Below are positions 5,305 to 50,754 of a stretch of 64,000 nt of DNA, piece by piece. Position 1 is the first letter of the stretch, and the number at the start of each line of letters is the position of its first letter. The position numbers were made by a program, and so were the translations under genes. The DNA lies in the sequence record OZ346189.1; one strand, 5' to 3'. The notes below the pieces were generated by a model, which had not been told where the DNA came from, ran no database searches, and worked only from the letters and a program-made list of their open reading frames with translations. Source of the stretch: a phage.

Positions 5305-5372
5305 GAGACTGTGATAGCCATGTTTTATGATCTTCCTGTAGCACCACCACCTGTTGAACCTGGAGAACTAAG

Positions 5373-5792
5373 ATGATCTATGAAATGCCAAAACTGATTC
5401 GTGACGATGCCCAAAACCACACCATTATTATGGGTAAACGCATGAATATCCTTTGCCGTAACGATTTCTGTGGTGTAGAATACGTTGCAGACTACTTCGG
5501 TGAGAATGGTAAACACCCTGTTCAGTTCTTCCTTGACCATGAGGATAACATTATCTGGGAGTTTGAAACTGAAGATATCCGCAACCTCTTCATCTTCCTC
5601 GGTGTCAAGGTTAAGGCCAATTTCGCGGAAGGTGAGTGCGACGATTGTGGATTTTATGAGGTGACAGACTTCTATCTCCCGAGTGGCAAGAACATTTACT
5701 ATGAGAGTCACTTCGGAAACACCAACATGCCTCAAAGCTGGGAAGAATTTTTCAGTATCGTAGAAGAGGAGCTGGCATACCGTGATTATTGA
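5373..5792 (+). CDS. hypothetical protein
   Basis: ORF with CTGGAGA RBS. Confidence 0.5.
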   Translation: MIYEMPKLIRDDAQNHTIIMGKRMNILCRNDFCGVEYVADYFGENGKHPVQFFLDHEDNIIWEFETEDIRNLFIFLGVKVKANFAEGECDDCGFYEVTDFYLPSGKNIYYESHFGNTNMPQSWEEFFSIVEEELAYRDY

Positions 5793-6240
5793 TACTGTAA
5801 AGGGAGATTTAATCTCCCTTTTTAAGAGCGGTGCTGGTCACCTAATCCACGGTTGTAACTGCTTCCACACAATGGGTAAGGGCATAGCAAAACAGATTGC
5901 CCGTGAGTTTCCTCAAGCATTGTCAGCCGACAAAGAGACCAGACACGGTTGCCTAAGTAAACTGGGTGCGTTCTCCCGATGGGAGCACTTATCTCCGAGA
6001 GGTATTGTCTACGGAATCAATCTGTATACTCAGTTCTACCCAGGGCCTAATGCTGAATATTTCTCAATCCTGAAAGGCTTTGAGCTAGTCAATGAGGTAT
6101 TCGAGGGATCGACTTTACCATTCTACATCCCTAAGATCGGATGCGGCATAGGCGGTTTGAAGTGGGAGCACGTAGAGGACGTTATTAACCTCGCCACTTT
6201 TGATATAGATATTATCGTGGTGGAGTACAAAGAGTGTTGA
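5782..6240 (+). CDS. macro-domain protein (TARG1/DarG-like ADP-ribose-processing fold)
   Basis: motif HGCNCFHTMGKGIAKQIAREFP resembles the TARG1/OARD1-type macro-domain signature (HC..DC.MGAGIA..F); GTG start with GAGGAG RBS. Confidence 0.5.
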   Translation: MIIDTVKGDLISLFKSGAGHLIHGCNCFHTMGKGIAKQIAREFPQALSADKETRHGCLSKLGAFSRWEHLSPRGIVYGINLYTQFYPGPNAEYFSILKGFELVNEVFEGSTLPFYIPKIGCGIGGLKWEHVEDVINLATFDIDIIVVEYKEC

Positions 6241-19826: not shown

Positions 19827-20212
19827 GTCTGCTCTTCCTCCTACCACAAACGGCCCAGCCTGGCAAGTGGAATAATTGACTAGCCATCAATCCCACACAC
19901 TGTACAAATATACATGGAAAATAACTATTGCATAATTTTTCATTGTGTGGTAGCAGGTCCATTTTTACCCGTTTTCTCTCTCAAAATTGCACGTAATGCC
20001 GCTATTGCACAAAATTTAACCTGATGCACATCTTCAATATCTTGTCAACAACTAAAAATCTTTATAAGTCATACACTTACACACTCACAAAAGCGTGTTC
20101 TACGTGAAAAATCGAGTATAACTATAGCCGCCAGATCTCAGAATTTACAAAGGCCATCATTAAAGCTTCAGTAAAATCAGTCATTCCTCACCTCTTGTTA
20201 GTCACTATACTA

Positions 20213-20476
20213 TCATTTATCCTTGTCGTCAAGAACTTTTTTAAATCTTTCAGGGATATCTCCCGTTCTTAGATAGTTCATGACCTCGCAAGGTTCCCAC
20301 TTGAATTTCTTACAGAGCAGGGCGGCTGAGATTGTTTCATTGCGAAAAGAAAGGATATTAATATCCCACTCTGAGAACCCCAACTTCCGAAGGGTAGCTA
20401 CAGAAATCCTCACCGCAACCCAGCAGCAAAAACATGCAACAAACGCCACTGCTACAACCCACATCAGGATGTTCAT
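20213..20476 (-). CDS. hypothetical membrane protein
   Basis: ORF with N-terminal TM segment. Confidence 0.4.
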   Translation of the reverse strand: MNILMWVVAVAFVACFCCWVAVRISVATLRKLGFSEWDINILSFRNETISAALLCKKFKWEPCEVMNYLRTGDIPERFKKVLDDKDK

Positions 20477-20565
20477 ATAAGCACCTTACTGAAATACAAG
20501 ACACAGTGTTAAGGTTACTGACCAGCAAATAATTAACAGTGCCGTTGCAACCTTGGCAAGATTTA

Positions 20566-20853
20566 TCATAGTGCCTCTAAGATTTCATATCCTTCGGGTC
20601 GGAATACAAGCCACTCCGTGGCTCCGTTTGGTCGATACGCTTTATACAGAACAACCTGGTCTCGGCACATGCACATGGCTACATAGTTTTCATCCACACC
20701 TGCAGCCTGCATTGCATCTTCTTCTCCGGCAACTGCTTTGCTTACAACTTCCTTGGTAGGCAGGTGTGCGATCAGCTCGTCACCATCATTAATTCCAAAA
20801 TGGCTGAGTTCGCCGTTGGTATCTTTAATCTTAATCTTAACCAGATCTTTCAT
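20566..20853 (-). CDS. hypothetical small protein (family A-like)
   Basis: ORF in a tandem minus-strand array; C-terminal E-x-x-E-A-L resembles the family A tail. Confidence 0.45.
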   Translation of the reverse strand: MKDLVKIKIKDTNGELSHFGINDGDELIAHLPTKEVVSKAVAGEEDAMQAAGVDENYVAMCMCRDQVVLYKAYRPNGATEWLVFRPEGYEILEAL

Positions 20854-21182
20854 TAGTCTTCCCCCAGGTTCAAAGGTCCTAAGATTTCATATGCCAGATT
20901 AGAAGTTACAAGAGGGTCTTCTGCGTCTTTAGTATTATACCACCCGTGAATAACCAGAGTCCCACTTTGTTTCATGTCCAACTGGAACTCTTCTGCCGTT
21001 TCCTCATCCAGCTCCAAGATTTCCATAAGGTATTTGATGTTAGGGAGGTATGCAGCTGTTACAGTCCCCTCTACCAGACCTTCAGGCCAACCTACATCTG
21101 GATGACAAGTAGGAACCAGATTGGTCAGCTTAATGGTGTACGCTTTTTCTGCACGAGCCTTCAGTAACGGGTCAATCTTCAT
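20853..21182 (-). CDS. hypothetical protein
   Basis: ORF, coupled start/stop. Confidence 0.45.
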   Translation of the reverse strand: MKIDPLLKARAEKAYTIKLTNLVPTCHPDVGWPEGLVEGTVTAAYLPNIKYLMEILELDEETAEEFQLDMKQSGTLVIHGWYNTKDAEDPLVTSNLAYEILGPLNLGED

Positions 21183-21532
21183 TATTCGTCCTCCTCTTCG
21201 GTACCTGCTTCCAGTAATAAGTTAAGAATATCTTCTGCACAAGGCTCATAGAACTCTTGGCCTTCATTATCGATGATTTTGTAGTCATCTCCGCGAATAA
21301 TCAGAGGATCACTCTCAAAATTATCGAGACCTTTAACAACGACAACACGATCGATTGCCATCATTGTAAGAACTTTATCGACATCTTCCTCTGCTACACC
21401 ATACTGCAGCAGAATGTCTTTGGTAGGAGGAACAGCATCCACCACAACACCGTTACCAAAACCTTCCGGTAAGTTAGCTAAAATATCTTCCGGAACCACA
21501 CTAACATCAAAACCAGTAATTTCTACTTTCAT
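21182..21532 (-). CDS. hypothetical acidic protein
   Basis: ORF, coupled. Confidence 0.45.
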   Translation of the reverse strand: MKVEITGFDVSVVPEDILANLPEGFGNGVVVDAVPPTKDILLQYGVAEEDVDKVLTMMAIDRVVVVKGLDNFESDPLIIRGDDYKIIDNEGQEFYEPCAEDILNLLLEAGTEEEDE

Positions 21533-21793
21533 TTACAGCACCTCTTCGTCAACTACTTCATAAAAATGGCCTGGGATTGCAATAGCGTTCTCACCTTCAC
21601 CTACAAACACAGTTCCGTCAAGAATCAACATCATAAGAGTTTCTGGAATATCCTCTTCCTGAACGTTGCCAAAACCTTTAATCAGCTCGTAGGTTGGAAG
21701 ATTTACCTCTAAGATGTCACCATCTTTAGAGCGGAAATCAACACCATCCTGAATCTCTGCCATTTCAAGGTTTTTCAGTTTAATCTTCATCAA
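21533..21793 (-). CDS. hypothetical small protein (family A-like)
   Basis: MMKIKLKNL... ends EVVDEEVL. Confidence 0.45.
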   Translation of the reverse strand: MMKIKLKNLEMAEIQDGVDFRSKDGDILEVNLPTYELIKGFGNVQEEDIPETLMMLILDGTVFVGEGENAIAIPGHFYEVVDEEVL

Positions 21794-21869
21794 TCAGTCT
21801 CCCGTCTTGTTAAGATGAAGGTATTATTTCACACAGGGTTGGCGTTGTCAACACCTGTGTGCAAGAAAA

Positions 21870-22265
21870 TTACTGAAACAGTGCGGATAAATTACCTTCT
21901 GGTGGGAACTTATCTGCCAAAAACGGTGTTAGCACAGTAGCCTTCTGAAGATCTGGGGTCCACTCGTTGTTCAGAACATCCCAGTAGTACGCAATGTTGC
22001 TGTGTGGGTGCCGCATTACGAACTTTTTCCCTTCGTAGTCATCTGAAACCTCTACAGAAGAAATAACAACAGAATCTTCAAGGGTTTCTTCATAGAAAGA
22101 TCCACCTTCAAATTTCCAACGAGATGCAAGAGCTCCTGCCTTGAACGCTGCAGATAACGGACTGTCTGCAAGAACATACATTTCTTGCACTCTGTCGCTG
22201 CGATCTTTGCTTCTTACGTTGTATACAGTATCTGAGCTATACTCAACACGGTATAGGCTTACCAT
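21870..22265 (-). CDS. hypothetical protein, paralog family B
   Basis: shares the HP-x-S...YW....W-TP motif with 24072..24470. Confidence 0.5.
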   Translation of the reverse strand: MVSLYRVEYSSDTVYNVRSKDRSDRVQEMYVLADSPLSAAFKAGALASRWKFEGGSFYEETLEDSVVISSVEVSDDYEGKKFVMRHPHSNIAYYWDVLNNEWTPDLQKATVLTPFLADKFPPEGNLSALFQ

Positions 22266-22597
22266 TACCGCACCTCCTCAATAACTTCCACATCTGAGCC
22301 CACCACAAATGCAAAAGGACAGGTTTCATGAAAGACATCCGGATCGCCGCCAAGCTTGCTAACAATCTCTCCACCACTAATAAACACAAGCTCACCGATA
22401 TTCATCAGATTGCTGAAATAGTACCCATAATGATTAAAGAATGCAGCAGGGTCAGGTAGACTAGTAGCCTCAAGCACTACATCAGTTGAGGTTACTTTCT
22501 TATCATAACCTCTCGCCTTTTGAGATGCAAGATCTGCAGAATCCTCAGGCGACCGGAGATGCACAGGAATTGTTTCACCAATAAAGCGTACTTTCAT
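22265..22597 (-). CDS. hypothetical small protein (family A-like)
   Basis: internal start MKVRFIG at 22597 (track ORF 22265..22624); ends DVEVIEEVR. Confidence 0.45.
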   Translation of the reverse strand: MKVRFIGETIPVHLRSPEDSADLASQKARGYDKKVTSTDVVLEATSLPDPAAFFNHYGYYFSNLMNIGELVFISGGEIVSKLGGDPDVFHETCPFAFVVGSDVEVIEEVR

Positions 22598-22601
22598 ATT
22601 A

Positions 22602-22865
22602 TCACCCAACAACCATAGCTTCAAAAGGGGTCATGAACGAATAAACGGCATCATCATCTGCTTCAGGGAATGCTCCCAAAGACTTCATGTCTGAGCCCTT
22701 GACAAATACAAGGTTTTGATCAAAAGCTTCTTGAGGATCAATCCGATACATATTTCGTAGAATATCGCCTACCTCCTCATCAAGAGGTGAGTATGCTGTG
22801 CACGTTTTTCCGATCAAGCTTTGAGAATCAGGGTATCCACCTGAAGTTTTAAAATAAACAATCAT
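22602..22865 (-). CDS. hypothetical protein
   Basis: ORF. Confidence 0.45.
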   Translation of the reverse strand: MIVYFKTSGGYPDSQSLIGKTCTAYSPLDEEVGDILRNMYRIDPQEAFDQNLVFVKGSDMKSLGAFPEADDDAVYSFMTPFEAMVVG

Positions 22866-22956
22866 ATAGTATCACCTCTGGTAAGAGATTGGGATTCCTT
22901 TCCCACAAATAATTACAAACCTTCCTTATCGAGGAAGTATGCTAATCCAAGCAGGA

Positions 22957-23226
22957 TTATTCCTCTACAATCTCATACACATCCGGAGTTACAATCAACT
23001 CTTCTCCGTTACCCGGTGCAACAAACACCACCATGCCTTCAGGTGTGTGCTTTTTAGCCATCTCGATAACATCTTCTCGCAGAGCTGGCTCCATCAGATC
23101 AAAACCTTCACCCAGGGCATCACGAACCACCTTCATATAGTCAACTGGTTGTGCTTCGACAATCATACCTTCAACCAGTCCACAGTTTTTGTCTGCCAGC
23201 TCAGTTTTGAATAATTTAATTTTCAT
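22957..23226 (-). CDS. hypothetical small protein (family A-like)
   Basis: MKIKLFK... ends YEIVEE. Confidence 0.45.
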   Translation of the reverse strand: MKIKLFKTELADKNCGLVEGMIVEAQPVDYMKVVRDALGEGFDLMEPALREDVIEMAKKHTPEGMVVFVAPGNGEELIVTPDVYEIVEE

Positions 23227-23363
23227 TTAGAGGTCTCCTCAATTATTTGATATTAATAGCCGTAACCTAACACATTAACTACAACTGCGATTGCAAACAT
23301 AATTTCAAAGCATGCAATCTCTACATTTGGAACTAATTTCTTGATCACACCCATTGTAGCACC

Positions 23364-23681
23364 TCATTCTCTAAAGTCAATCTTTACTTTGCCTTTCCCC
23401 TTACCTTTCTTTCCACCGCATTTAGCCAGTTGACGTGCTGCAACATCTACCATACGGTCAGTTGCCTCGTAAGCATCACTGCCTTTAGCTTTGGCAATAA
23501 CTTCTTTTCCAGAATTGTCAAAAATGAACGCCATAACTTCCTGGTGATCATTTTCAACTTTTACACTCACACGTGCATAGTTGGCAGAGGGATGCAAACG
23601 CTCCAGCTTAGACATTTTGTGGGAAATGAAAGACACCATACCTTCAGTGATTTCTACGTTGCCAGTGATTTCAATTTGCAT
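23364..23681 (-). CDS. hpf: ribosome hibernation promoting factor (HPF/RaiA/YfiA family) homolog
   Basis: MQIEITGNVEITEGM...KLE...VKVE...G.D.Y.A.D...ARQL aligns along its length with E. coli HPF (MQLNITGNNVEITEA...). Confidence 0.75.
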   Translation of the reverse strand: MQIEITGNVEITEGMVSFISHKMSKLERLHPSANYARVSVKVENDHQEVMAFIFDNSGKEVIAKAKGSDAYEATDRMVDVAARQLAKCGGKKGKGKGKVKIDFRE

Positions 23682-23763
23682 AACGTGTTCCTTTTAAAGA
23701 AGAGGGAACCAAACCCTCTTTGAAAACAATGATACTAAATCTGAAGCGTTGTGTCAACAGTTT

Positions 23764-24054
23764 TTACAGATTGTTGTCGATAGTTTTTAAAATATCCACA
23801 GCAAGATCTGCCATTTTTCGAACATACTCTGCAAACTCAACAGGATCCTTGATCAAAGAATTCACAGGGTCGTACCCTAGAGCGTTCAAAATGGCTGCAG
23901 CATCTACAACCTTCTCATCATTTGCGAAGATCTCTCCATCAAACTTGTAGGTCCATTTTGAGTCAATCTTGGCAGGGAATGATTGGTCAACGCTTGTTAC
24001 ACCATCCTTTTTAAACGCTCCGGTGTTATCAGTGTCTAGAACTAAATCCATCAT
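23764..24054 (-). CDS. hypothetical protein
   Basis: ORF. Confidence 0.45.
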   Translation of the reverse strand: MMDLVLDTDNTGAFKKDGVTSVDQSFPAKIDSKWTYKFDGEIFANDEKVVDAAAILNALGYDPVNSLIKDPVEFAEYVRKMADLAVDILKTIDNNL

Positions 24055-24071
24055 GTTAGTACCTCACCGTT

Positions 24072-24470
24072 TCAGTTTAGCTTTTCTTCAACAACCCCAT
24101 AGCTCGGGACAGAGTCAAGAGCTTTCTGGTTTAAAAGTGGTGTAGCAGAATCTGCAAACGGTGTCCAAGTTTTTGTTCTGGCATTCCAGTAATGCTTCAC
24201 TCTGGAATCTGGATGCACTATAACAAAAACTTTTTCACTTGTCAACACATTAATTTCTTCTACACCCTTGCTGATAATTTCTCCGTCATAGCCACCAGTC
24301 TGGTATCCTTCGTACCAGGTTCTTGCATATGCATAGCCAGCCTGCCAGCATGCAGCCTCCTCCGAGGTGGAGACTACGTAGAAGTCTTTCTCAAATTCTG
24401 GGATACGCCCTTGCTTTACGCTCCAAGCTCCGCGAATTTTCATTGTAACTTTGAACAGTTTATTTTTCAC
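24072..24470 (-). CDS. hypothetical protein, paralog family B
   Basis: VIVHPDSRVKHYWNARTKTWTP matches VMRHPHSNIAYYWDVLNNEWTP of 21870..22265. Confidence 0.5.
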   Translation of the reverse strand: MKNKLFKVTMKIRGAWSVKQGRIPEFEKDFYVVSTSEEAACWQAGYAYARTWYEGYQTGGYDGEIISKGVEEINVLTSEKVFVIVHPDSRVKHYWNARTKTWTPFADSATPLLNQKALDSVPSYGVVEEKLN

Positions 24471-24482
24471 AACGGTTACCCA

Positions 24483-24737
24483 TCACAGCTCTACAATCTC
24501 TGCATCTGACCCTGCCCCAAAGGCATAATAGGATTCTTCCCCGAAATAATATTCCGGTGCACCAGCAGCGATCAGGTCTGATCCCAAGATAAACACCACG
24601 TTGTGGCCTACATAACTGTGATGTTGCCGCACAGGATCATCCCACGGCAACCCTTCAAAGTATACCGCAGGAACGACCTTTCCCTTCAGGAAGGATTGTC
24701 CCAAGTAGACGTTAGAATCAAGAATTTTAACCTTCAT
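24483..24737 (-). CDS. hypothetical small protein, paralog family A
   Basis: MKVKILDSNVYLGQ...DLIAAGA...EIVEL; close paralog of 24727..24954. Confidence 0.5.
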   Translation of the reverse strand: MKVKILDSNVYLGQSFLKGKVVPAVYFEGLPWDDPVRQHHSYVGHNVVFILGSDLIAAGAPEYYFGEESYYAFGAGSDAEIVEL

Positions 24738-24954
24738 TCTCGTCCTCCACTATCTCTACATCCTCACCAAGGGCAAAGTTGTAGGTCCACTGGCTGTCAA
24801 AGCAGTCCTGAGATGCACCAGCGGAAATAAGATCTGCACCTTTTATTTTTAAAAGGTCAGGATAATCTTCGTTAGGGATAGCGGTAAACACTTTCCCCAC
24901 TAAGGGCTCCTGACCAATATAGAAGCTTGAATCTAAAACTTTAACTTTCATCAA
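24727..24954 (-). CDS. hypothetical small protein, paralog family A
   Basis: MMKVKVLDSSFYIGQ...DLISAGA...EIVEDENEG. Confidence 0.5.
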   Translation of the reverse strand: MMKVKVLDSSFYIGQEPLVGKVFTAIPNEDYPDLLKIKGADLISAGASQDCFDSQWTYNFALGEDVEIVEDENEG

Positions 24955-25238
24955 CGGTCTCCCTCAGGCGGTTGTGGGACGTAAACACTGTTACGAATAT
25001 CGTCAGCAGTGTAGTAATAAGTGGTTCCAACCCTATCTCGGGCTGCAATGTACTCTGCTATACCAATAAGTGCCATTGATTTGGTGGCGTATCTTCCCCA
25101 CTCGTTAGCTCCCCAGTAGAATTTAGACCAGTAGGGAATAATACCGAACAAATATACCTTTTGACGAACTTCCCAGTAAGTGCCTTTTCCGACAAGTTTA
25201 AACTCTACTTCACTACTGTTAATCTTTTTCATTATCAA
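24951..25238 (-). CDS. hypothetical protein
   Basis: ORF, coupled. Confidence 0.45.
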   Translation of the reverse strand: MIMKKINSSEVEFKLVGKGTYWEVRQKVYLFGIIPYWSKFYWGANEWGRYATKSMALIGIAEYIAARDRVGTTYYYTADDIRNSVYVPQPPEGDR

Positions 25239-25531
25239 TCTCCCTCTACCGTGGTCGGATTGTCAGTAAGAAATTGAGCATTGGCTGGAGGCACGCCTGA
25301 CATTTTCCACACAACCATAAGTTTGTAACCAGGAACTCTATTAAGTGCAGATCGAGTAGAGTTTGTGCACGTATACTTTCGCTTTCCAAACCCGTTCTCC
25401 ATCATAATCCAGTACCCAGTATCTTTGTCACCAGGTATCGGTAGACCACCTTCATCAACCCACTGAATGGACCACGGCACGATGGCTACAGCTTTATATT
25501 TAAACTTTTTAAACCACTCAAAAAGTTTCAT
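25235..25531 (-). CDS. hypothetical protein
   Basis: ORF, coupled. Confidence 0.45.
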   Translation of the reverse strand: MKLFEWFKKFKYKAVAIVPWSIQWVDEGGLPIPGDKDTGYWIMMENGFGKRKYTCTNSTRSALNRVPGYKLMVVWKMSGVPPANAQFLTDNPTTVEGD

Positions 25532-25626
25532 AATTCAGCCTCGCATAGACATAATCACTATAAACAGGCAAACAATGAATCCGAATGCCACGCCACCCAT
25601 AAACGTTAATATTGATGCAATCATAG

Positions 25627-25812
25627 TCAATCAGCCTCGCTTGGCAACTCTTCTACCTTAACATGCCGAAAAGTGTTACCGTAATGGTTGATCCATGACA
25701 TCAGCTCGCTTTCTTGCTCTTCCTCTGGGATGAACTCTCGAATGCTGACAAGTTTTAAGAAAACCCAATCACAATCTGCACCCATTCTACCAGACAGGCA
25801 ATAGTGCTTCAT
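25627..25812 (-). CDS. hypothetical protein
   Basis: ORF. Confidence 0.4.
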   Translation of the reverse strand: MKHYCLSGRMGADCDWVFLKLVSIREFIPEEEQESELMSWINHYGNTFRHVKVEELPSEAD

Positions 25813-25830
25813 AAAACCCCCCCACCTGGT

Positions 25831-26025
25831 TTAGAATATTGCTTCTTCCATTGCACCTGAGAGCAACAAAGAGGTGATCTGGCTAACATTCATCTCAGAC
25901 TCTACTTCCTCCCCTTTGAAAGGTTCGCGGCAGAATAGGACTGTTTCAGGACTTTTACTTCGAACAATATAATACAAATCATTCAATGTGTTGTAGTAAT
26001 AAGTGTTAAAACGTAAGTTTTTCAT
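25831..26025 (-). CDS. hypothetical protein
   Basis: ORF. Confidence 0.4.
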   Translation of the reverse strand: MKNLRFNTYYYNTLNDLYYIVRSKSPETVLFCREPFKGEEVESEMNVSQITSLLLSGAMEEAIF

Positions 26026-26309
26026 TTTCTAGTCCCCTTCTTAGATTTTTGTGTAGAAACGCTTTCTGCAATACGAGACAAACGTTCTTCTGAAGCCTTG
26101 CCTATTCCAGGTTTTTTGAGTGGGTTATCTTTATGACCACAATCCAATTGGATATTGGATACCTCTCCAACCTTGTAAGTCAATTCTAGCAAAAGGTTGT
26201 CGTCCTTGTCAAATGTTCTTACGATAAATTTTTTATCGTTCTCCTGAACTTCGTATCGGGTACCCGCAGTATACAACATGGTGCCATCCGCATAGGATAT
26301 CCAGATCAT
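26022..26309 (-). CDS. hypothetical protein
   Basis: ORF, coupled. Confidence 0.45.
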   Translation of the reverse strand: MIWISYADGTMLYTAGTRYEVQENDKKFIVRTFDKDDNLLLELTYKVGEVSNIQLDCGHKDNPLKKPGIGKASEERLSRIAESVSTQKSKKGTRK

Positions 26310-26653
26310 TGAACCTCCTTCTGCTGCAACAGCATTAACTCTTTGTTGGAGATTTTTACTGCTGTTTTTATTGTTCCATCTTCACGAAACCACGACCAGA
26401 ACTCTACAGTGTCCCCACTGTCAAGCAAAGCATACCCGTGGTAGAAGTCTTTGTCCTTAGACAGTTTCTCATCTATGTCTGCATCGACACATTCGTGATC
26501 CATAGCATTTTGCCTGAATGCATCGGTTATACCAATGCACGCCTTGCTCTCAAGACTGGTATATCCGATATCTTTTAATTCAGTTTCCCAAGTCCAGTAC
26601 CCTATAAAAGCTAAAACAGCTACCCACATTAATAACGTTTTAATCTTTGGCAT
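26306..26653 (-). CDS. hypothetical protein with N-terminal signal/TM segment
   Basis: ORF; hydrophobic N-terminus. Confidence 0.45.
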   Translation of the reverse strand: MPKIKTLLMWVAVLAFIGYWTWETELKDIGYTSLESKACIGITDAFRQNAMDHECVDADIDEKLSKDKDFYHGYALLDSGDTVEFWSWFREDGTIKTAVKISNKELMLLQQKEVQ

Positions 26654-26715
26654 TCTCTCTACCTCTTTCTTAGTTTATTTCACTATGGCACATCCTTTGT
26701 GCCATATCTCAACCA

Positions 26716-27177
26716 CTACTTAAATAGTAGTCCAAAATAGTGCAAAATTAACAGAAGTTGAACTACACCTAGTGCAACGGCGAGTATGTTAATCTTAGAA
26801 TCGAAAAACTTCTTAACTTTTACTCTAAAAGGTTCCTTAATGTCCTTTACGATCCTATTTATAGATGATTTCATATCCCTGATTACCATCCTAAACATTA
26901 GAGACGGATCTTCCTTCTCTGTAATAGAATCGAAAACATACTCTCTTCGGTCATAAGGACCTCCAGATCTGCGTATTAACCTCTCCACAGAGACCTCGTA
27001 CGACACACCTGTAACGTAATCATCTATGATAAGTAGTGACGGGTCTTTATCGTCCAAGGGTATTAAAGTTATCTTTCCAGATTTTGTTAAAATTTCTCCT
27101 TTTTCAAGCAAGGTGTACCAATGCTCTCTACCAAGATTGTTGAGGCACGTTTTTACATATTTAACAAACATCGTCAC
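26716..27177 (-). CDS. hypothetical protein with C-terminal TM helix
   Basis: ORF. Confidence 0.45.
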   Translation of the reverse strand: MTMFVKYVKTCLNNLGREHWYTLLEKGEILTKSGKITLIPLDDKDPSLLIIDDYVTGVSYEVSVERLIRRSGGPYDRREYVFDSITEKEDPSLMFRMVIRDMKSSINRIVKDIKEPFRVKVKKFFDSKINILAVALGVVQLLLILHYFGLLFK

Positions 27178-27359
27178 CCCTCATAGCACGTCTGATATAA
27201 CCACTCTATGAAATCTTGATACCATTCGCCCTCTGAGCGCTCCGTAGGCCAATAATCTTCACCCTCTCGTGCATTAAAATCTGAGTATTCAACTTTCCAC
27301 TCCTTTACCAGCTCGTGGAGAAGGTTTTCAGCCTGCTCTAAAGATTTATTTTTTGCCAT
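27174..27359 (-). CDS. hypothetical protein
   Basis: internal start MAKNK at 27359 after AAAAGGAGACAGC RBS. Confidence 0.4.
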   Translation of the reverse strand: MAKNKSLEQAENLLHELVKEWKVEYSDFNAREGEDYWPTERSEGEWYQDFIEWLYQTCYEG

Positions 27360-27578
27360 TGCTGTCTCCTTTTTCAAGATAGTTATACATCAGAACTGCA
27401 CCACCTAAGATGGCTACCAGTAACAATATCCCAGATAGCATCTCAATAAACATGGCTTGAAACACTGGAAGGTCTCCCTAAATTAACGCACCATTTTAAA
27501 TACATGCTCTTTTCCCATAAAGGTGCCTGGCTAAGATCTGCGTAGAACGCAATCTCTTTAAGAACAGTATAGATAGTT

Positions 27579-27806
27579 TTAGGTGCGGTCTCCATCCCTA
27601 CTCTCCTTCCTGATATTCTTGTAGTAATCAACTAGGCACATTATTACGATGAAGATAACAACAGGCCAAAAAGGTGCAGCAGTGATGATGGTGATAAAAT
27701 CATCAAACTTCACCCTTCGTCTGGACACGATGCATACACCTGTCAAGAATACCGCTGTTATAACGGACATTACCAGGTAACCTATTAGCACAACATTTAT
27801 ACTCAT
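27579..27806 (-). CDS. hypothetical membrane protein
   Basis: start MSINVV at 27806 after AAAGGGGAGGA RBS; two TM helices. Confidence 0.4.
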   Translation of the reverse strand: MSINVVLIGYLVMSVITAVFLTGVCIVSRRRVKFDDFITIITAAPFWPVVIFIVIMCLVDYYKNIRKESRDGDRT

Positions 27807-27837
27807 TGGTCCTCCCCTTTGTAGGTTAAATTGTATA

Positions 27838-28371
27838 CTACAAATGGTCGCTGAGGGTGTCAAGAAAATTATCCCGTTCTTTCTCAGAGTTTTCATGTGT
27901 GTAGCTGAAAAACATATCGAGAATAACCTTATTGATATATTCCAGCTCCTCTGTGTTCAGATGCTTAGCAGGATCTACAATGACATCCCAAATATCATAC
28001 AGACCACACTCATGATACCCATAACGCCACTCAATTGTCAAGCTGAGCGGCAAATCTTTACCGTCACAAACAACCTTCCATCTACATATGTTGGTATCTG
28101 GTCGTACCTGTGCACGGTACACCTGTACAAAATCCAATTTGAATTTGAGGTACTCGTCATACAATTTAAGCACAAAGCTCTCGATTTGTGGAGACACTTT
28201 TGCAGCAAACTGTGCGTATTTGTACTTGCACTGGATGATCTTTCTGCGTTTTGCAGTTAAATTTTTTGCCGCCAGTTGTTCTTCAGTGTATCTCCACCTA
28301 CGATCAACAAACGCAACAGGGTCTTTGTCCCCATAGAGGTCTTCCCAGTTAATCAGAAGCATACCTGTCAC
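27838..28371 (-). CDS. hypothetical protein
   Basis: ORF, coupled. Confidence 0.45.
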   Translation of the reverse strand: MTGMLLINWEDLYGDKDPVAFVDRRWRYTEEQLAAKNLTAKRRKIIQCKYKYAQFAAKVSPQIESFVLKLYDEYLKFKLDFVQVYRAQVRPDTNICRWKVVCDGKDLPLSLTIEWRYGYHECGLYDIWDVIVDPAKHLNTEELEYINKVILDMFFSYTHENSEKERDNFLDTLSDHL

Positions 28372-28601
28372 TCCTCCACAACTTCAAGGCCTTTACCGCC
28401 TCGCTCTGGCAGATTACTTAAAGATAGGTAATACATATAATCAGGAGAGATCCTGCCAGACTCTGCACCTGCAGCTAGTAAATCCTTCCCTTTAACCAGG
28501 ACAACATTCTCGTTTGCAGATAGCCGTTTTGCTTCCACAATTTTACCAACACAGTCAACCAAGGAAGGGTACCCTAAATCTGTAAGAAATTTAACTTTCA
28601 T
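28368..28601 (-). CDS. hypothetical small protein, paralog family A
   Basis: MKVKFLTDLGY...DLLAAGA...EVVEE. Confidence 0.5.
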   Translation of the reverse strand: MKVKFLTDLGYPSLVDCVGKIVEAKRLSANENVVLVKGKDLLAAGAESGRISPDYMYYLSLSNLPERGGKGLEVVEE

Positions 28602-28638
28602 GCTACCTCCTACCTACCATCCCTGGTAAGATAAATTA

Positions 28639-29037
28639 TTACTGAACAGAGCGCGGTGCTGGGAAGGATAACTCTTCTAAAGAGAAGATTTCATTTCCTA
28701 CCACCCAAGTTGCTGGGTCATCTGGATCAACAGGTTGGATAATCATTACCTCATCAGCCTCGCACACACGTTTCCCACCCATAGTAGCGTCAGCCACTAA
28801 CATACGCGGCTCTTCAGAAATGCACAGGTAGCCACCTCGGCCCACTGTTCCTTCCACGGGATCCTGCCCTTTGACCACAATGAATACCTTCTCTCCTGTG
28901 GCGATATTACTTTTCACACTAACAGTTTGACCAACTTTAGATGTACCGATCTTGGTGGCTTCAAACATTAAATCCCGAATTACTGTTGCATAGTTGCCGG
29001 ACACTTTCTTACCTTCTTTAGTAATCTCAATCTTCAT
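28639..29037 (-). CDS. hypothetical protein
   Basis: ORF. Confidence 0.45.
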   Translation of the reverse strand: MKIEITKEGKKVSGNYATVIRDLMFEATKIGTSKVGQTVSVKSNIATGEKVFIVVKGQDPVEGTVGRGGYLCISEEPRMLVADATMGGKRVCEADEVMIIQPVDPDDPATWVVGNEIFSLEELSFPAPRSVQ

Positions 29038-29273
29038 AATCTAGGCTCCTTAAATGAATCTATGTAATCAATTAAATCCCAAGCATCGCGATGGGCTGTC
29101 AGAGGGTATACTTCTCCGAGAGGGATCATAGCAATAAGTCTATCAAAAACCCAGTCTGGACGCAACATTTTATGGTGATATTCCCACTCACCTTCCACAG
29201 ATTTTTTCTGAGTTATCAGGATCTCTGTGTAGTGTTTCTCCTGTCTTGAGTAGATTGAAAATGACTTGTACAT
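29034..29273 (-). CDS. hypothetical protein
   Basis: internal start MYKSF at 29273 after AGAGGGGG RBS. Confidence 0.4.
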   Translation of the reverse strand: MYKSFSIYSRQEKHYTEILITQKKSVEGEWEYHHKMLRPDWVFDRLIAMIPLGEVYPLTAHRDAWDLIDYIDSFKEPRL

Positions 29274-29309
29274 AAATGACCCCCTCTTGTTGAAAACAAC
29301 AATACACAA

Positions 29310-29594
29310 CTACCAGGTTACTGTCAAGTAGGCAACCGTATTATTTTTCTCTGGGGAGATGCCAACAACATCTACCTGCAGACCTCCTGCCCTTAAATCT
29401 CCAACAATGTGAGGGAAGTAATCTGAGAGATGCGAGGGTAGATTTATCGAAAATCCGCACCCCAGAAAGCCTGCTAACGCTTTATTTTGTATCTCCCCCA
29501 CAATCGCATCATAAATGGAGTTAAGCTCGTCAGGGAGCGTTACAGGACGTTTTAGCGCTAACTGGTGTAATTTGTCCTTAGCACTCATTTTCAT
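29310..29594 (-). CDS. hypothetical protein
   Basis: start MKMSAK at 29594 overlapping the upstream stop. Confidence 0.4.
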   Translation of the reverse strand: MKMSAKDKLHQLALKRPVTLPDELNSIYDAIVGEIQNKALAGFLGCGFSINLPSHLSDYFPHIVGDLRAGGLQVDVVGISPEKNNTVAYLTVTW

Positions 29595-30124
29595 TTCAGG
29601 TCTACCTCTGGAGGTGCCAACCACATAAACGGCGGCAAGTCTAAACGGTTTTTCTTATCCCACACAAAATATGCATATGCTTGCCCGTCAGTTCTGCCGT
29701 TTGATTGAAATGATGGACGCTTAGATATTGTGATCACAGTAGTAGGTGCATTATCAAGCCACCATTCAAATCTGGCTTTGCTTTCCAGAAAATTAAGACG
29801 CAAAAGCATAATAACTACGTCAGCATCTTTCAACGCCTTGTCTACAAACTCACGAGCCAGGCTGTATGGTGGGTTGGTGATAATACAGTCAACATGGTTG
29901 TATTCTGTATTCAGATAGTCAACACCTTCTTGTATTTCTCCCCATGCAGATCCTAACGGCATACGGGAGTAGAACACACCTGAGGCACTATTCCTGCAAG
30001 GCTCTAAGTAGGTCCAGTCTTCTGGGAACGGAATAAGGTCATACAGCCCTTCTGCACACCACTCCGGTGTCACATACTCATCGTAGGCGTTACGTTGTTC
30101 ATCAGGTTTTCGAGCACAAGTCAT
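29591..30124 (-). CDS. phage Dam-type DNA N6-adenine methyltransferase (small)
   Basis: ITNPPYS catalytic motif plus N-terminal YVTPEW...LEPC pattern typical of small phage N6-adenine methyltransferases. Confidence 0.5.
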   Translation of the reverse strand: MTCARKPDEQRNAYDEYVTPEWCAEGLYDLIPFPEDWTYLEPCRNSASGVFYSRMPLGSAWGEIQEGVDYLNTEYNHVDCIITNPPYSLAREFVDKALKDADVVIMLLRLNFLESKARFEWWLDNAPTTVITISKRPSFQSNGRTDGQAYAYFVWDKKNRLDLPPFMWLAPPEVDLK

Positions 30125-33048: not shown

Positions 33049-33522
33049 TTAGTCAACCTGAACCCAACCACCTGCTGCCTTTTTAAACATTCTTTGGTTA
33101 TCACTACCTCTGAAGGGTTTTTTGGTTGGGTTATCTTTTTCGTACTTACCATCCATAATGTAATCGACACTATCTTTAATGTAATCGGGAACCTCTTCAA
33201 ACAAATACCCTGTGTACACCCAGATAGTTTTTGTGTTGCCGAAGTGTTCACGGATAGCGCTAATGATCGAGTACATACCCTCAATATTGTAAGGCGCTAA
33301 AGGTTCGCCACCGCATAATGTAACGCCAGTAATGTGTTTCGGCTCTATAGAGTGAAGTATACTCTCAATAGTGTCATTTGTTAACGGTTCCCCTTTAGCT
33401 GGTGACCAAACACTTTTGTTTTGGCAACCGACGCAGTGATGTGGGCAACCAGAACAGAACACCGTTGTCCTAATGCCTGGGCCGTCAACCATGCTACACT
33501 CTATAATATTAACAACATTCAT
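33049..33522 (-). CDS. nrdG: anaerobic ribonucleotide reductase activating protein
   Basis: CPHHCVGCQNKSVW radical-SAM cysteine cluster typical of NrdG; about 157 aa. Confidence 0.75.
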   Translation of the reverse strand: MNVVNIIECSMVDGPGIRTTVFCSGCPHHCVGCQNKSVWSPAKGEPLTNDTIESILHSIEPKHITGVTLCGGEPLAPYNIEGMYSIISAIREHFGNTKTIWVYTGYLFEEVPDYIKDSVDYIMDGKYEKDNPTKKPFRGSDNQRMFKKAAGGWVQVD

Positions 33523-33755
33523 TCCTTATCCTCTTTTAGGTAAGGATATTCAGGCCCACAATAAGCTCTATCCAAGAAAACAGCTTCTTCCCCTCTGGAA
33601 TCAGTAGATCTATAATACCCATCACCATGGTAACTAACGAACCAGTGGCACCCATCATCGCTTTCTACTGTTGTGGCTCTGTCCGAATGAAAGATAATTT
33701 CGTAATCCTTACCGAATGTAAACCATCTGTTAGCTTTTACACAGACACCTATCAT
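33519..33755 (-). CDS. hypothetical protein
   Basis: ORF, coupled. Confidence 0.4.
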   Translation of the reverse strand: MIGVCVKANRWFTFGKDYEIIFHSDRATTVESDDGCHWFVSYHGDGYYRSTDSRGEEAVFLDRAYCGPEYPYLKEDKE

Positions 33756-34086
33756 AAGGAACCTCTCTTCTGTGGTGTGCTTCTATTCAAGATAAACCTA
33801 TAAAAGTCCATTTGATGAAGCCGTATAACTTTTTATACTTACGCTTCAGTGCTAACAATTTTATCTTGATTTTCTTGATAGATTCCCGCATTTCGACCCC
33901 TTATGCTTATAAGTACTCCGCATCGCATTCAGGGCAATGCCAAATAAAATCGTCCAGTGCCTTGCACCAACGAAGATTGCAACGACAACCACACTTGCAA
34001 ATTTTATAAATACCTTTAGACATACTGTACCCCCCAGCTCACTGTGTGTCAATAATATGCCACATCCTTGTGGCTTTTGTCAAGTA

Positions 34087-35292: not shown

Positions 35293-36143
35293 CATTCTAC
35301 CAAAGACCGAGGTATCCAGTCCTAAACTTAATGTGATGAATGGAGTCTGCTGTCTCCTCCCTGTGTTTCCACAGGGCCAGACTATCTATTACTCTACTTC
35401 AATAAGATAATAACCCTTTATTGTGAGATGCTTACCTTCGGCATTTCCTTCGATAGCCCTGTGAACGTTACCTACGTTCAAATTTAAGGCTTTTGCACAG
35501 GCGTAGAGTGAAGGATATTCACCCACCAAGATTTTCCCTTTGTATGCCTGCACTTTCCTATAGCACTTACCTGGACAAAGTCCTGTTCGGAAAGCATGTC
35601 TCTTATTATCTTCCGGCAAAACCCACTCTAGGTTAGACGGATGATCATTCAATGTATTGCCATCTTTATGATTCACTTCCCAGTTTTCAGGGTCTTCTGG
35701 GACATCTGGCAAACAATACAAGGCAACAACCCTTGAGGTTTGGATTCGAATCTTTTTACCTTTGTGGTTGAAAGAGTACATATAACGGCGTTTAACATGC
35801 TTATTACCTTTTCCATAACCTCCCCACAATATTGGGTGCAGCATTCCACGTTTTCCGTATACGTTTCCAACTTCATCAATCACATAGTTTGATTCTTCAC
35901 CATTAAGAATGATCTTTTTCATAGAGCCTCTCCATTTCGAAGTTAGTATTTCAACTAACCCCTACACTACTTGGTTCAGAAATGTTTGTCAAGCATCTCT
36001 GCCTTTCGTTAGTCGTTACAACCGTTCCAACTCCTGTAAGAACTAGTCACGGGATTGGCATAGCTTTCGCCTTAGCGTTCCCCGTTAGCCGGATTTACCG
36101 ACCCCTCTTATGAGGTTAGGAGAGTTTTACAACGGCCAGTTTG
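35293..36143 (-). other. group I intron (IA2-like) within nrdD
   Basis: exon 1 ends ...AACGGU then UAA; intron contains UAACGGGGAAC and CAAUCCCGUGACUAG as in the T4 td intron, an R-like GUAACGACUAAC element, and UAGAUAGUCUGG (S-like) after the HEG; boundaries approximate. Confidence 0.55.
35389..35922 (-). mobile_element. HNH homing endonuclease encoded within the nrdD intron
   Basis: HNH motif EVNHKDGNTLNDHPSNLEWV; GGAGAG RBS. Confidence 0.7.
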
Positions 36144-49586: not shown

Positions 49587-49883
49587 TCAAGACTTTTTAG
49601 TCTTTCTTGGAGAGCTTTTTGTTGATCTTTTCCTTTTGTGGTAGATTCCAAGTGCAGCGTTTTCTTGGGCGCACGTTTTAACAGTTCTCAGAGAAGAACT
49701 TTCAGCTTTAGGCAGGTTTAACTCCCACCAACCGAGCCAGTAAAGTTCTGATTCCGACAGCTGCTCAGATTCAGCCTTCCGATACAATGATTGCATACCT
49801 CTAATGATGTCGTCCAGAGGTGTATCGAATACAAAAGCTGTCTTATCAAATTTCTCTTTTACAGGTTTCTTAGCCATGCTCAC
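49587..49883 (-). CDS. hypothetical basic protein
   Basis: ORF. Confidence 0.4.
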   Translation of the reverse strand: MSMAKKPVKEKFDKTAFVFDTPLDDIIRGMQSLYRKAESEQLSESELYWLGWWELNLPKAESSSLRTVKTCAQENAALGIYHKRKRSTKSSPRKTKKS

Positions 49884-50754
49884 CTCTCACACAATCATCC
49901 ACTGACTTCATAAACTCTTGCACCCAAAGTGCCCCTATTTGAGGAACTATGGCGTTACCGAAGCCTTTGTGGCGAGACAATCCCATTGGGGTGGATAGCC
50001 CATCAACCAACAAGGGAATGCCGGGTTCAGGAAGTTTACGCCATTTTCCGTCTCGGCATAGATACTGTCTTGTATGCTCCCACACCCGTAATACATCCTC
50101 ACCTGCTCCCACAGATTCCCAGGACTTAATGACTTCCTGCCAGTTGCTAAGCGTTGTTGCTTGCGCCTTTCCATCGCTTCCTGAGATCTGCACCCTACCT
50201 GAGTTACCGTAGGGGTTAACCACGTTGCTAACTGCCCCGAAGTAAAGTCGTTCGCGGCGGTGCGGGGCGTTGAGGATTGCAGCATTAAGTATGGAAGCCC
50301 CGAAGCTGTAACCAGCGTTTTCCATTTCATTCTGCATATCGTCGAGCCATCCGGATTCAATCGCTTTTGCAACCTGCTCTCCAAACATGAACTCAGGTTT
50401 AAGCTGTTTAACGAGCCGGAGGTATGTTGGTGCAAGATGTCTTGGGTCAAATTTTCCACGTTGCTTACCTGCTTGAGAGAAAGGTTGGCAGCACGGAGAT
50501 CCTGTGCATACCGACCAAGTTTCTGGAATGCCAGCAAGTTTCAAGGCCAAAGGCCATCCACCTATACCAGCGAAGAAGTGCCACTGTGTGAAACCTCTAA
50601 GATCTTCTACAGTAACCTCTGTAATAGAACGATCATCCACCTCGCCTTGAGGAAGTAGTCCTAAAGATATTAGATTCTTCAACCAAGCAACTGCATCTTT
50701 ATCATTGTCATTGTAGTATACCACACTTAATTCTCCAAATACTGATGTATCCAA
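49870..50754 (-). CDS. DNA (cytosine-5)-methyltransferase
   Basis: motif I FFAGIGG, motif IV GSPCCQPFSQAG, motif VIII HRRER, motif X GNAIVPQ. Confidence 0.65.
   Translation of the reverse strand: MDTSVFGELSVVYYNDNDKDAVAWLKNLISLGLLPQGEVDDRSITEVTVEDLRGFTQWHFFAGIGGWPLALKLAGIPETWSVCTGSPCCQPFSQAGKQRGKFDPRHLAPTYLRLVKQLKPEFMFGEQVAKAIESGWLDDMQNEMENAGYSFGASILNAAILNAPHRRERLYFGAVSNVVNPYGNSGRVQISGSDGKAQATTLSNWQEVIKSWESVGAGEDVLRVWEHTRQYLCRDGKWRKLPEPGIPLLVDGLSTPMGLSRHKGFGNAIVPQIGALWVQEFMKSVDDCVRGEHG

Follow-up and report, generated by a model that had tools for sequence, protein, structure and literature searches.

Families of small paralogous proteins, two of them with a predicted SH3-like fold, in a gene cluster of an rV5-like coliphage

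The stretch of phage DNA considered here, 64,000 nucleotides of sequence record OZ346189.1 (the window), holds between positions 20566 and 29037 a dense run of ~29 small genes on the minus strand, 12 of which can be grouped into three families of paralogous proteins, termed A, B, and C. The evidence supports a view of this cluster as an early/middle accessory module, which would consist largely of duplicated, small, acidic proteins that fold as barrels and are not part of the virion. The original prediction, made from the sequence alone, had described the genes as tightly coupled on one strand, and this is borne out, with stops and starts that overlap or abut. The minus strand carries every gene from ~20.2 kb to 56 kb.

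The best match of positions 20000-30000 is Escherichia phage AlexBoehm (Bas56, MZ501048), with 99.6% identity, which places the source phage in the genus Vequintavirus as an rV5-like coliphage; 126 phage records match this segment. The AlexBoehm counterpart of the cluster comprises 29 annotated coding sequences, of which only two carry a name other than 'hypothetical', namely a ribosome hibernation factor and a 'putative glycosidase', and corresponds to ORF126-154 in the numbering of the rV5 reference. When the family profiles were searched against the complete AlexBoehm genome (135 kb; 1152 open reading frames, ORFs), members were found in one 8-kb cluster only.

Membership of families A, B, and C

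The members are listed below with their length in amino acids (aa), their rV5 ORF number, and the supporting matches, including those to profile hidden Markov models (HMMs). Genes are referred to by their first coordinate.

28368-28601, minus strand: family A, 77 aa, ortholog of rV5 ORF127, short form, MKVKFLTD...KDLLAAGA...LEVVEE; phrog_5009 E 8.3e-36
24727-24951, minus strand: family A, 74 aa, ORF140, short form; BLASTP against 24483 with 41% identity, E 2e-14; phrog_5009 E 1.3e-36
24483-24737, minus strand: family A, 84 aa, ORF141, long form, its β2-β3 loop enlarged by an insertion; phrog_5009 E 3.6e-32; HMM E 4.8e-34
22602-22865, minus strand: family A, 87 aa, ORF147, long form; core-A HMM E 1.8e-5; weak phrog_5009 match, 1.2e-4
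22265-22597, minus strand: family A, 110 aa, ORF148, the most divergent, with an extra N-proximal insertion and a degenerate central motif (GEIVSKLGG); core-A HMM E 6.6e-5; BLASTP against 24483 E 3.5e-4
24072-24443, minus strand: family B, 123 aa from an ATG (132 aa from a GTG at 24470), ORF142, HPDS...HYW...TWTP; BLASTP against 21870 E 1.7e-9; phrog_7379 E 5.2e-74
21870-22265, minus strand: family B, 131 aa, ORF149, HPHS...YYW...EWTP; phrog_7379 E 2.1e-66; shuffle z 9.9 against 24072
22957-23226, minus strand: putative family C, 89 aa, ORF146, MKIKLF...YEIVEE, with a ~30-aa helical insert in the predicted SH3-like barrel; leave-one-out HMM E 4e-4
21533-21790, minus strand: putative family C, 85 aa, ORF150; phmmer against 21182 E 5e-4; leave-one-out HMM E 1.8e-3
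21182-21532, minus strand: putative family C, 116 aa, ORF151, isoelectric point (pI) 4.05, C-terminal EAGTEEEDE tail; leave-one-out HMM E 2.7e-3
20853-21182, minus strand: marginal family C, 109 aa, ORF152; HMM E 0.013-0.025, missed in leave-one-out
20566-20853, minus strand: putative family C, 95 aa, rV5 ORF153/154 (split there); leave-one-out HMM E 1.6e-5

Family A was delimited by profile searches. An HMM built from the three core members (24483, 24727, and 28368) plus a temperate-phage homolog retrieved exactly five of all 680 six-frame ORFs of the window, at E ≤6.6e-5. Beyond these, no real ORF scored better than E 1.5 and no reversed-sequence control better than 0.3; once 22602 and 22265 were added, the search converged at these five without further recruits. 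Pairwise comparison by all-vs-all BLASTP among the 29 minus-strand cluster proteins links 24727 to 28368 (E 5e-6), 24483 to 28368 (E 8e-4), and 22602 to both 28368 (0.005) and 24483 (0.014). The phrog_5009 profile matches the three core members end to end, and 22265 is not listed among its matches. The gene at 24483 overlaps that at 24727 by 11 nt, and an alternative TTG start at 24954 would lengthen the 24727 protein by one residue.

At least four ORFs had originally been proposed to share the motifs MKVK-x-LD, DL(I/L)(A/S)AGA, and E(I/V)VE. The three core members do share MKVK-x-L and the two other motifs, whereas 22265 lacks the literal central motif and is nonetheless a member by HMM. The proposed roster was also incomplete, since it overlooked the fifth member at 22602-22865, and the genes at 20566, 21533, and 22957, which had been taken for divergent A members, do not belong to this family (HMM E >4 even after iteration). 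The terminal motifs are enriched in the cluster in general, with an MK[VI][KRE] N-terminus in 6/25 cluster genes against 2/91 elsewhere and an E[IV][IVL][EDG] C-terminus in 6/25 against 3/91, and therefore neither of them alone marks a family.

The second proposed family, defined by HP-x-S...YW....W-TP, was confirmed as family B, whose two members share 28% identity over 111 aa and both fall in phrog_7379. The 24072 protein was found in Vequintavirus only, in 117 records. Weak matches of family B to designed Kelch-like proteins (E 1.4e-3, with no qualifying stretch) were judged compositional.

The genes at 20566, 21533, 22957, and 21182, and marginally 20853, may instead form a separate family C, coherent though weak. 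The top non-self matches of 20566, 21533, and 22957 among the 680 ORFs are one another together with 21182 and 20853, and hhalign between the C subfamilies gave values of 0.3-26%. A link between families A and C at the sequence level was rejected, as it gained no support from HMM iteration or from hhalign, which gave a probability of ≤13% and covered the N-terminal strand only, also when long-form A was compared with each C subfamily. Cross-family shuffle z-scores are mostly <3. In the annotation of the rV5 reference (L013, 667-956), two short, overlapping ORFs, ORF153 and ORF154, take the place of the 20566-20853 ortholog, with a difference of 2 nt in length by blastn; the split stems either from a frameshift or from faulty sequencing of the reference. 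A chimeric protein (P0131) with a DUF7399 N-terminus and a 20853-type C-terminus, encoded on a 657-bp contig, was set aside as a likely recombinant or assembly artefact.

The cluster genes had been said to match no recognisable family. With respect to Pfam, NCBIfam, and PDB sequences this stands, with the ribosome hibernation gene described below as the one exception: neither the A, B, and C proteins, nor 33 diverse relatives of family A, nor the family profiles gave a match. Every gene, however, already belongs to a PHROG of unknown function. Both phrog_5009 (the family A core) and phrog_7379 (family B) carry the label 'unknown function', and 22602, 22265, and each of the C genes sit in separate single-lineage PHROGs (13920, 13661, 11868, 12359, 12155, 12457, and 12794). 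The paralogs are thus spread over nine families, and their paralogy is not captured there. In the literature, neither a genome-wide screen or transcriptome for a Vequintavirus nor a functional study of the A, B, or C genes was found, and a preprint on an accessory-gene screen does not mention rV5-like phages. The three families are catalogued yet uncharacterized.

Predicted fold and distribution in other phages

Families A and C are predicted to have a common fold class, a five-stranded SH3-like β-barrel. The AlphaFold2 model of the 28368 protein, based on a 34-sequence alignment, reached a mean local confidence (pLDDT) of 95 and a global template-modelling score (pTM) of 0.82, with all five models at ≥93.9; its elements follow the order β1(2-5), helix, β2, β3(30-37), helix(38-43), β4(56-60), and β5(72-76). 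The family C model (22957, 36 sequences; pLDDT 92.3) likewise has five strands, with a ~30-residue helical insert between β2 and β3. In both families MK[VI]K would form β1 and E[IV]VE would form β5, which accounts for the motif resemblance that had suggested a single family. The extra elements lie in different loops in A and C, the insertion of the long-form A proteins being in the same β2-β3 loop as that of family C.

Compared with SH3 and SH3-like small β-barrels, such as the Sho1 SH3 domain (2vkn_A), the KOW domain of Spt5, and the C-terminal domain of PhnA, the A and C models align with only 8-19% identity, and they differ from them in extra helical elements, which follow β3 in A and separate β2 from β3 in C. 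Neither the window members nor the 33 diverse family A relatives match the SH3, SH3b, KOW, or Sm models of Pfam at E ≤1. A Foldseek search of BFVD recovered the same fold in many uncharacterized phage proteins of 60-90 aa, with E 2e-4 to 0.1 and template-modelling (TM) scores of 0.6-0.84; among its hits is A0A5B9MW73 (TM 0.73/0.66) from Shigella phage CM1, a Vequintavirus, a protein that equals the 22602 product in length (87 aa). Proteins of similar length with this fold include those of RB49 (Q76ZG7), Shigella phage Sf20 (A0A2K9VNT9), SRT8 (A0A2D1GP41), VpV262 (Q8LT74), ZCKP1, and Merlin, all of them uncharacterized and with sequence identities of 16-30%, compatible with either homology or convergence. 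The adjacent accessions A0A514CYF5/CYE9/CYG1 among these matches suggest tandem paralogs there too.

The barrel fold raises the alternative that the paralogs are small nucleic-acid binders (KOW-, Sm-, or PhnA-like) regulating phage or host transcription or translation, a role that the ribosome hibernation gene embedded in the cluster would fit. The A and C members have pI values of 4.0-5.4 and net charges of -1 to -22, and no basic patch is evident from sequence. This acidity, which extends to the cluster products in general (median pI 4.74, 60% below pI 5, vs 26% elsewhere in the window), argues against nucleic-acid binding. Together with the missing KOW and Sm matches in Pfam, and with top fold hits that are peptide-binding SH3 domains, it makes such a role improbable.

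Outside the genus, family A occurs in temperate phages. Word-seeded searches reached close relatives only, namely 8 clusters and later 42, each of them from an rV5-like phage or an E. coli prophage, and tblastn located the family in the temperate coliphages mEp021, mEp013, and mEp554 with 41-49% identity. The homologs mEp021_40 and mEp554_56 and those of E. coli prophages (P0023, P0027, P0032, and P0035) are true A members, aligning over their full length with 28368 at 41-49% and bearing the same motifs. Unlike the genes of the window, they are single-copy and belong to temperate siphovirus-like phages, where they lie in a block of small genes between Q and the lysis cassette; the mEpimmI paper reports no function for this homolog. 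Families B and C, on the other hand, are confined to Vequintavirus.

An exhaustive profile search of 1.84 billion representatives yielded 45 family A hits at E<1e-3, mostly full-length proteins of 63-90 aa, with the wider consensus MKVKLLNDGGY..G....GKVVEA...G.ELI.AGA...Y.F..G.E.EIVEE. Some single chains hold two or three copies of the domain (P0050, P0074, and P0051). Tandem arrays recur in unrelated IMG/VR contigs of 44-66 kb, with three neighbouring copies each in L009 and L010 and a pair in L011, located directly downstream of Pol A, primase-polymerase/helicase, or RecT genes and near genes for RusA, a 5'-3' exonuclease, and ASCH proteins. No known counter-defence gene was found among the neighbours of family A in these loci.

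In L011, a 219-aa ORF (5352-6011) combines an HNH_3 homing-endonuclease domain and a helix-turn-helix (HTH) with a C-terminal family A domain, with a DNA polymerase A gene upstream and a second family A gene directly downstream. It probably represents a homing endonuclease inserted into or beside a family A gene. Domain fusions as a clue to function (the Rosetta-stone approach) proved uninformative, with this HNH/HTH fusion and coiled-coil or unannotated extensions as the only cases.

A bolder proposal is that A, C, and the same-fold phage proteins of 60-90 aa form one ancient, phage-specific superfamily of 'MKVK...EIVEE' mini-barrels, which Caudoviricetes would repeatedly have amplified, as tandem arrays and as chains of several domains, to serve as a binder scaffold open to diversification, the variable loops of each copy being tuned to a different host target. 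On the present evidence this idea is doubtful.

Selection, copy number, and genomic setting

The ratio of nonsynonymous to synonymous substitution rates (dN/dS) was calculated for the window against phage ECP26 (90.8% nucleotide identity) and against rV5, and amounts to 0.09/0.12 for A, 0.06/0.04 for B, and 0.10/0.10 for C, with 0.08/0.13 for the other small cluster genes. These low values indicate that the orthologs are real genes under strong purifying selection. Nearly all of ~120 Vequintavirus records encode proteins ≥93% identical to 28368 and 24072, whereas the paralogs share 22-49% identity with one another, which points to old duplications. The families had been predicted to be expanded and diversifying; they are indeed expanded, and confined to one cluster, but dN/dS values of 0.04-0.12 and near-invariance in ~120 genomes do not show diversification.

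The same data bear on the explanation that the motifs are chance or compositional resemblances and that some of the ORFs are not genes. MK starts and acidic C-termini are generally enriched in the cluster, and the similarities within family C are individually weak, as this explanation would expect. However, the HMM E-values lie far below the reversed-sequence controls, dN/dS is ~0.1, the AlphaFold2 models are confident, and 45 homologous clusters at E<1e-3 emerge from 1.84 billion proteins, so that chance can hardly be credited; for A and B the shared motifs are statistically significant and the chance reading is refuted.

The copy number of family A varies. At least two independent rV5-like contigs (L017, 2501-2713, and L018, 2501-2713) carry, in place of the adjacent 24727/24483 pair, one hybrid gene of 70 aa, in which a 24727-type N-half is joined to a 24483-type C-half by an unequal crossover inside the conserved GADLIAAGA. 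L018 also lacks several other small cluster genes. Another apparent hybrid, P0008 (72 aa, on contigs of ~1.5 kb), joins an mEp021_40-like N-half to a 24727-type C-half of rV5 and is either a temperate-virulent recombination or an assembly chimera. On a larger scale, the gene order A24727-A24483-B24072 parallels A22602-A22265-B21870, which suggests that an A-A-B block was duplicated as a segment. By shuffle z-score, however, the syntenic pairs are barely ahead of the others (5.9 and 7.1 against 5.7 and 5.6), and no two A genes are closer to each other than the neighbours 24727/24483 (z 14.7).

A more specific explanation takes the paralogs for anti-defence proteins, each of which would inhibit a different immune system or variant, and it is in keeping with their being small, acidic, tandemly duplicated, and probably early. 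Variation of copy number by unequal crossover points in the same direction, as does the occurrence of family A in accessory regions of prophages and temperate coliphages. Nevertheless, strong purifying selection, with orthologs at ≥93% in nearly all ~120 genomes, is unlike typical fast-turnover anti-defence loci, and these are conserved core genes of the genus instead of variable cargo. Vequintavirinae have been described as exceptionally susceptible to restriction-modification (RM) systems, and EdH4 is sensitive to Hachiman, both of which speak against this explanation. The general Pfam, NCBIfam, and PDB searches, which were not complemented by a dedicated anti-defence library, revealed none of the known anti-defence or anti-restriction inhibitors (such as ArdA, Ocr, Acr, Tad, and Gad), and the Pfam and NCBIfam libraries hold known anti-restriction families. 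In other phages, moreover, the neighbours are replication and recombination genes. This explanation is thus regarded as unlikely. The suggestion of a host-takeover or anti-defence repertoire remains plausible in its first half, as a general host-interaction repertoire in an early/middle-type setting, while its anti-defence half is unsupported, no connection having emerged between these proteins and a defence system.

Regarding transcription, the 13 best σ70-like promoter matches between 19 and 31.5 kb include 11 on the coding strand, and three of the sites coincide with the published rV5 promoters P144, P150, and P156. Two of them, and the gene that P144 precedes, are the following:

23729-23757, minus strand: σ70-type promoter, rV5 P144, upstream of the ribosome hibernation gene; 11/12 consensus match (rV5 Table S4)
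21823-21851, minus strand: σ70-type promoter with an extended -10, rV5 P150, upstream of four tandem C genes; 11/12 match with TG (rV5 Table S4)
23364-23681, minus strand: homolog of the ribosome hibernation promoting factor (HPF/YfiA), part of the context and not a family member; PF02482 E 1.8e-12; NCBIfam TIGR00741 E 6e-12, above cutoff

According to the rV5 paper, the T4-late-like promoter motif occurs only upstream of the structural genes 27-66, and mass spectrometry (MS) of the virion identified 19 proteins (gp1, 27, 30, 32, 33, 36, 37, 41-43, 45, 49, 52, 53, 60, 61, 64, 133, and 228). None of the A, B, or C orthologs (ORF127, 140-142, and 146-154) is among them, in agreement with the view that these are not structural or assembly proteins. 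A role as virion, assembly, or scaffolding components could be defended by the neighbouring gp133, which is one of the predominant virion-associated proteins by MS, and by mEp021_41, annotated as a virion structural protein beside the family A homolog. With no family member among the 19 proteins, and with genes transcribed as a unit with σ70 promoters, remote from both the structural module and the late promoters, such a role is very improbable. The gp133 ortholog itself (26716-27171, minus strand) has a hydrophobic, transmembrane-like end, and this non-structural cluster is an odd place for a virion-associated protein.

Several neighbouring genes and records deserve mention. The HPF gene lies in the middle of the cluster under its own σ70 promoter, P144, and its annotation is already public. 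Several public records call the ortholog of 22957 a 'sigma 54 modulation factor' and that of 27838-28362 (minus strand) a 'putative glycosidase'. Neither has a Pfam or NCBIfam match, and both labels look unsupported, the former having probably been copied from the adjacent HPF gene. Just downstream of the array, a gene for an 87-aa membrane protein (20213-20476, minus strand), which is not a family member, is the ortholog of EdH4_00214. EdH4 Δgp214 is viable, and if gp214 of that paper is the locus tag EdH4_00214, as the numbering implies, this gene would be dispensable in the laboratory.

At 20148-20150 the window lacks 4,437 bp found in AlexBoehm (record 90835-95271), comprising most of an unannotated region without called ORFs, bas56_0130-0138, and the 3' part of bas56_0139. 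With flanks that are 100% identical, the loss gives the impression of a clean and recent deletion immediately on the downstream side of the paralog cluster; its unannotated part is probably the 'non-coding' box on the genome map of the rV5 paper. Further gaps in the otherwise collinear AlexBoehm alignment (94-98%), at 33160-33914, 35387-36008, and 49877-50748, are probably indels of mobile elements (such as homing endonucleases or introns) in the nucleotide-metabolism region. Finally, in 18-19 GenBank records under the name 'Campylobacter phage' (MG0656xx, host given as C. jejuni), the sequence of this region shares 95-100% identity with rV5-like phages of E. coli, suggesting mislabelled hosts or contaminating coliphages.

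Proposed mode of action and comparison with known modules

The mode of action that is tentatively favoured, with a likelihood somewhat below even, is the stoichiometric binding of host or phage proteins, with the paralogs differing in specificity, because an acidic SH3-like barrel most readily suggests a protein-binding module. In the proposed mechanism, three ancient families of small, acidic, cytoplasmic proteins would have been expanded by tandem or segmental duplication, giving five A, two B, and four or five C members. A and C would be compact SH3-like β-barrels with loop or helix elaborations in a different loop in each family. Each paralog may then bind and modulate a different host (or possibly phage) protein during the takeover of the cell, through its variable loops and, in family A, also through the conserved G-x-(D/E)-L-I-x-A-G-A helix-loop. 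That the genes are expressed early, that their products bind proteins, and that the targets belong to the host is inferred in this proposal.

Two observations weigh against it. A housekeeping role in phage development would explain the near-invariance within the genus equally well, and natural isolates that tolerate an A-A fusion imply some redundancy or dispensability. The cluster had also been put forward as the best candidate in the window for an undescribed system, for which there is no support, as there is no sign of the genes acting together.

Phages of the rV5 type belong to the commonest coliphage isolates and are candidates for therapy and biocontrol, yet ~40% of this conserved 30-gene module has no assigned role. 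The reduction of 12 'hypothetical' genes to three families, with ten of them on one compact predicted fold, leaves few testable units, in essence a single scaffold in several variants. If the paralogs were binders of distinct host proteins, they would constitute a compact natural toolkit for the study of E. coli physiology and an example of small-fold diversification; if they were dispensable, the cluster would offer a safe site for engineering payloads.

Large virulent phages are known to carry host-takeover modules of small early genes, exemplified by gp37-gp60 of SPO1 and by the small early ORFs of T4 and T5, and arrays of small early accessory genes are thus a familiar kind of feature. The likeness of the cluster to the SPO1, T4, and T5 early modules is one of layout, without a sequence relationship to the window genes. 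The SPO1 module is not known to be built of SH3-like paralog families, and a small SH3-like barrel recurring as tandem arrays across phages is modestly novel. Like these early modules, the cluster is a dense one-strand run of ~30 small genes with several strong σ70-type promoters, whose products are mostly shorter than 130 aa, unmatched, and absent from the virion.

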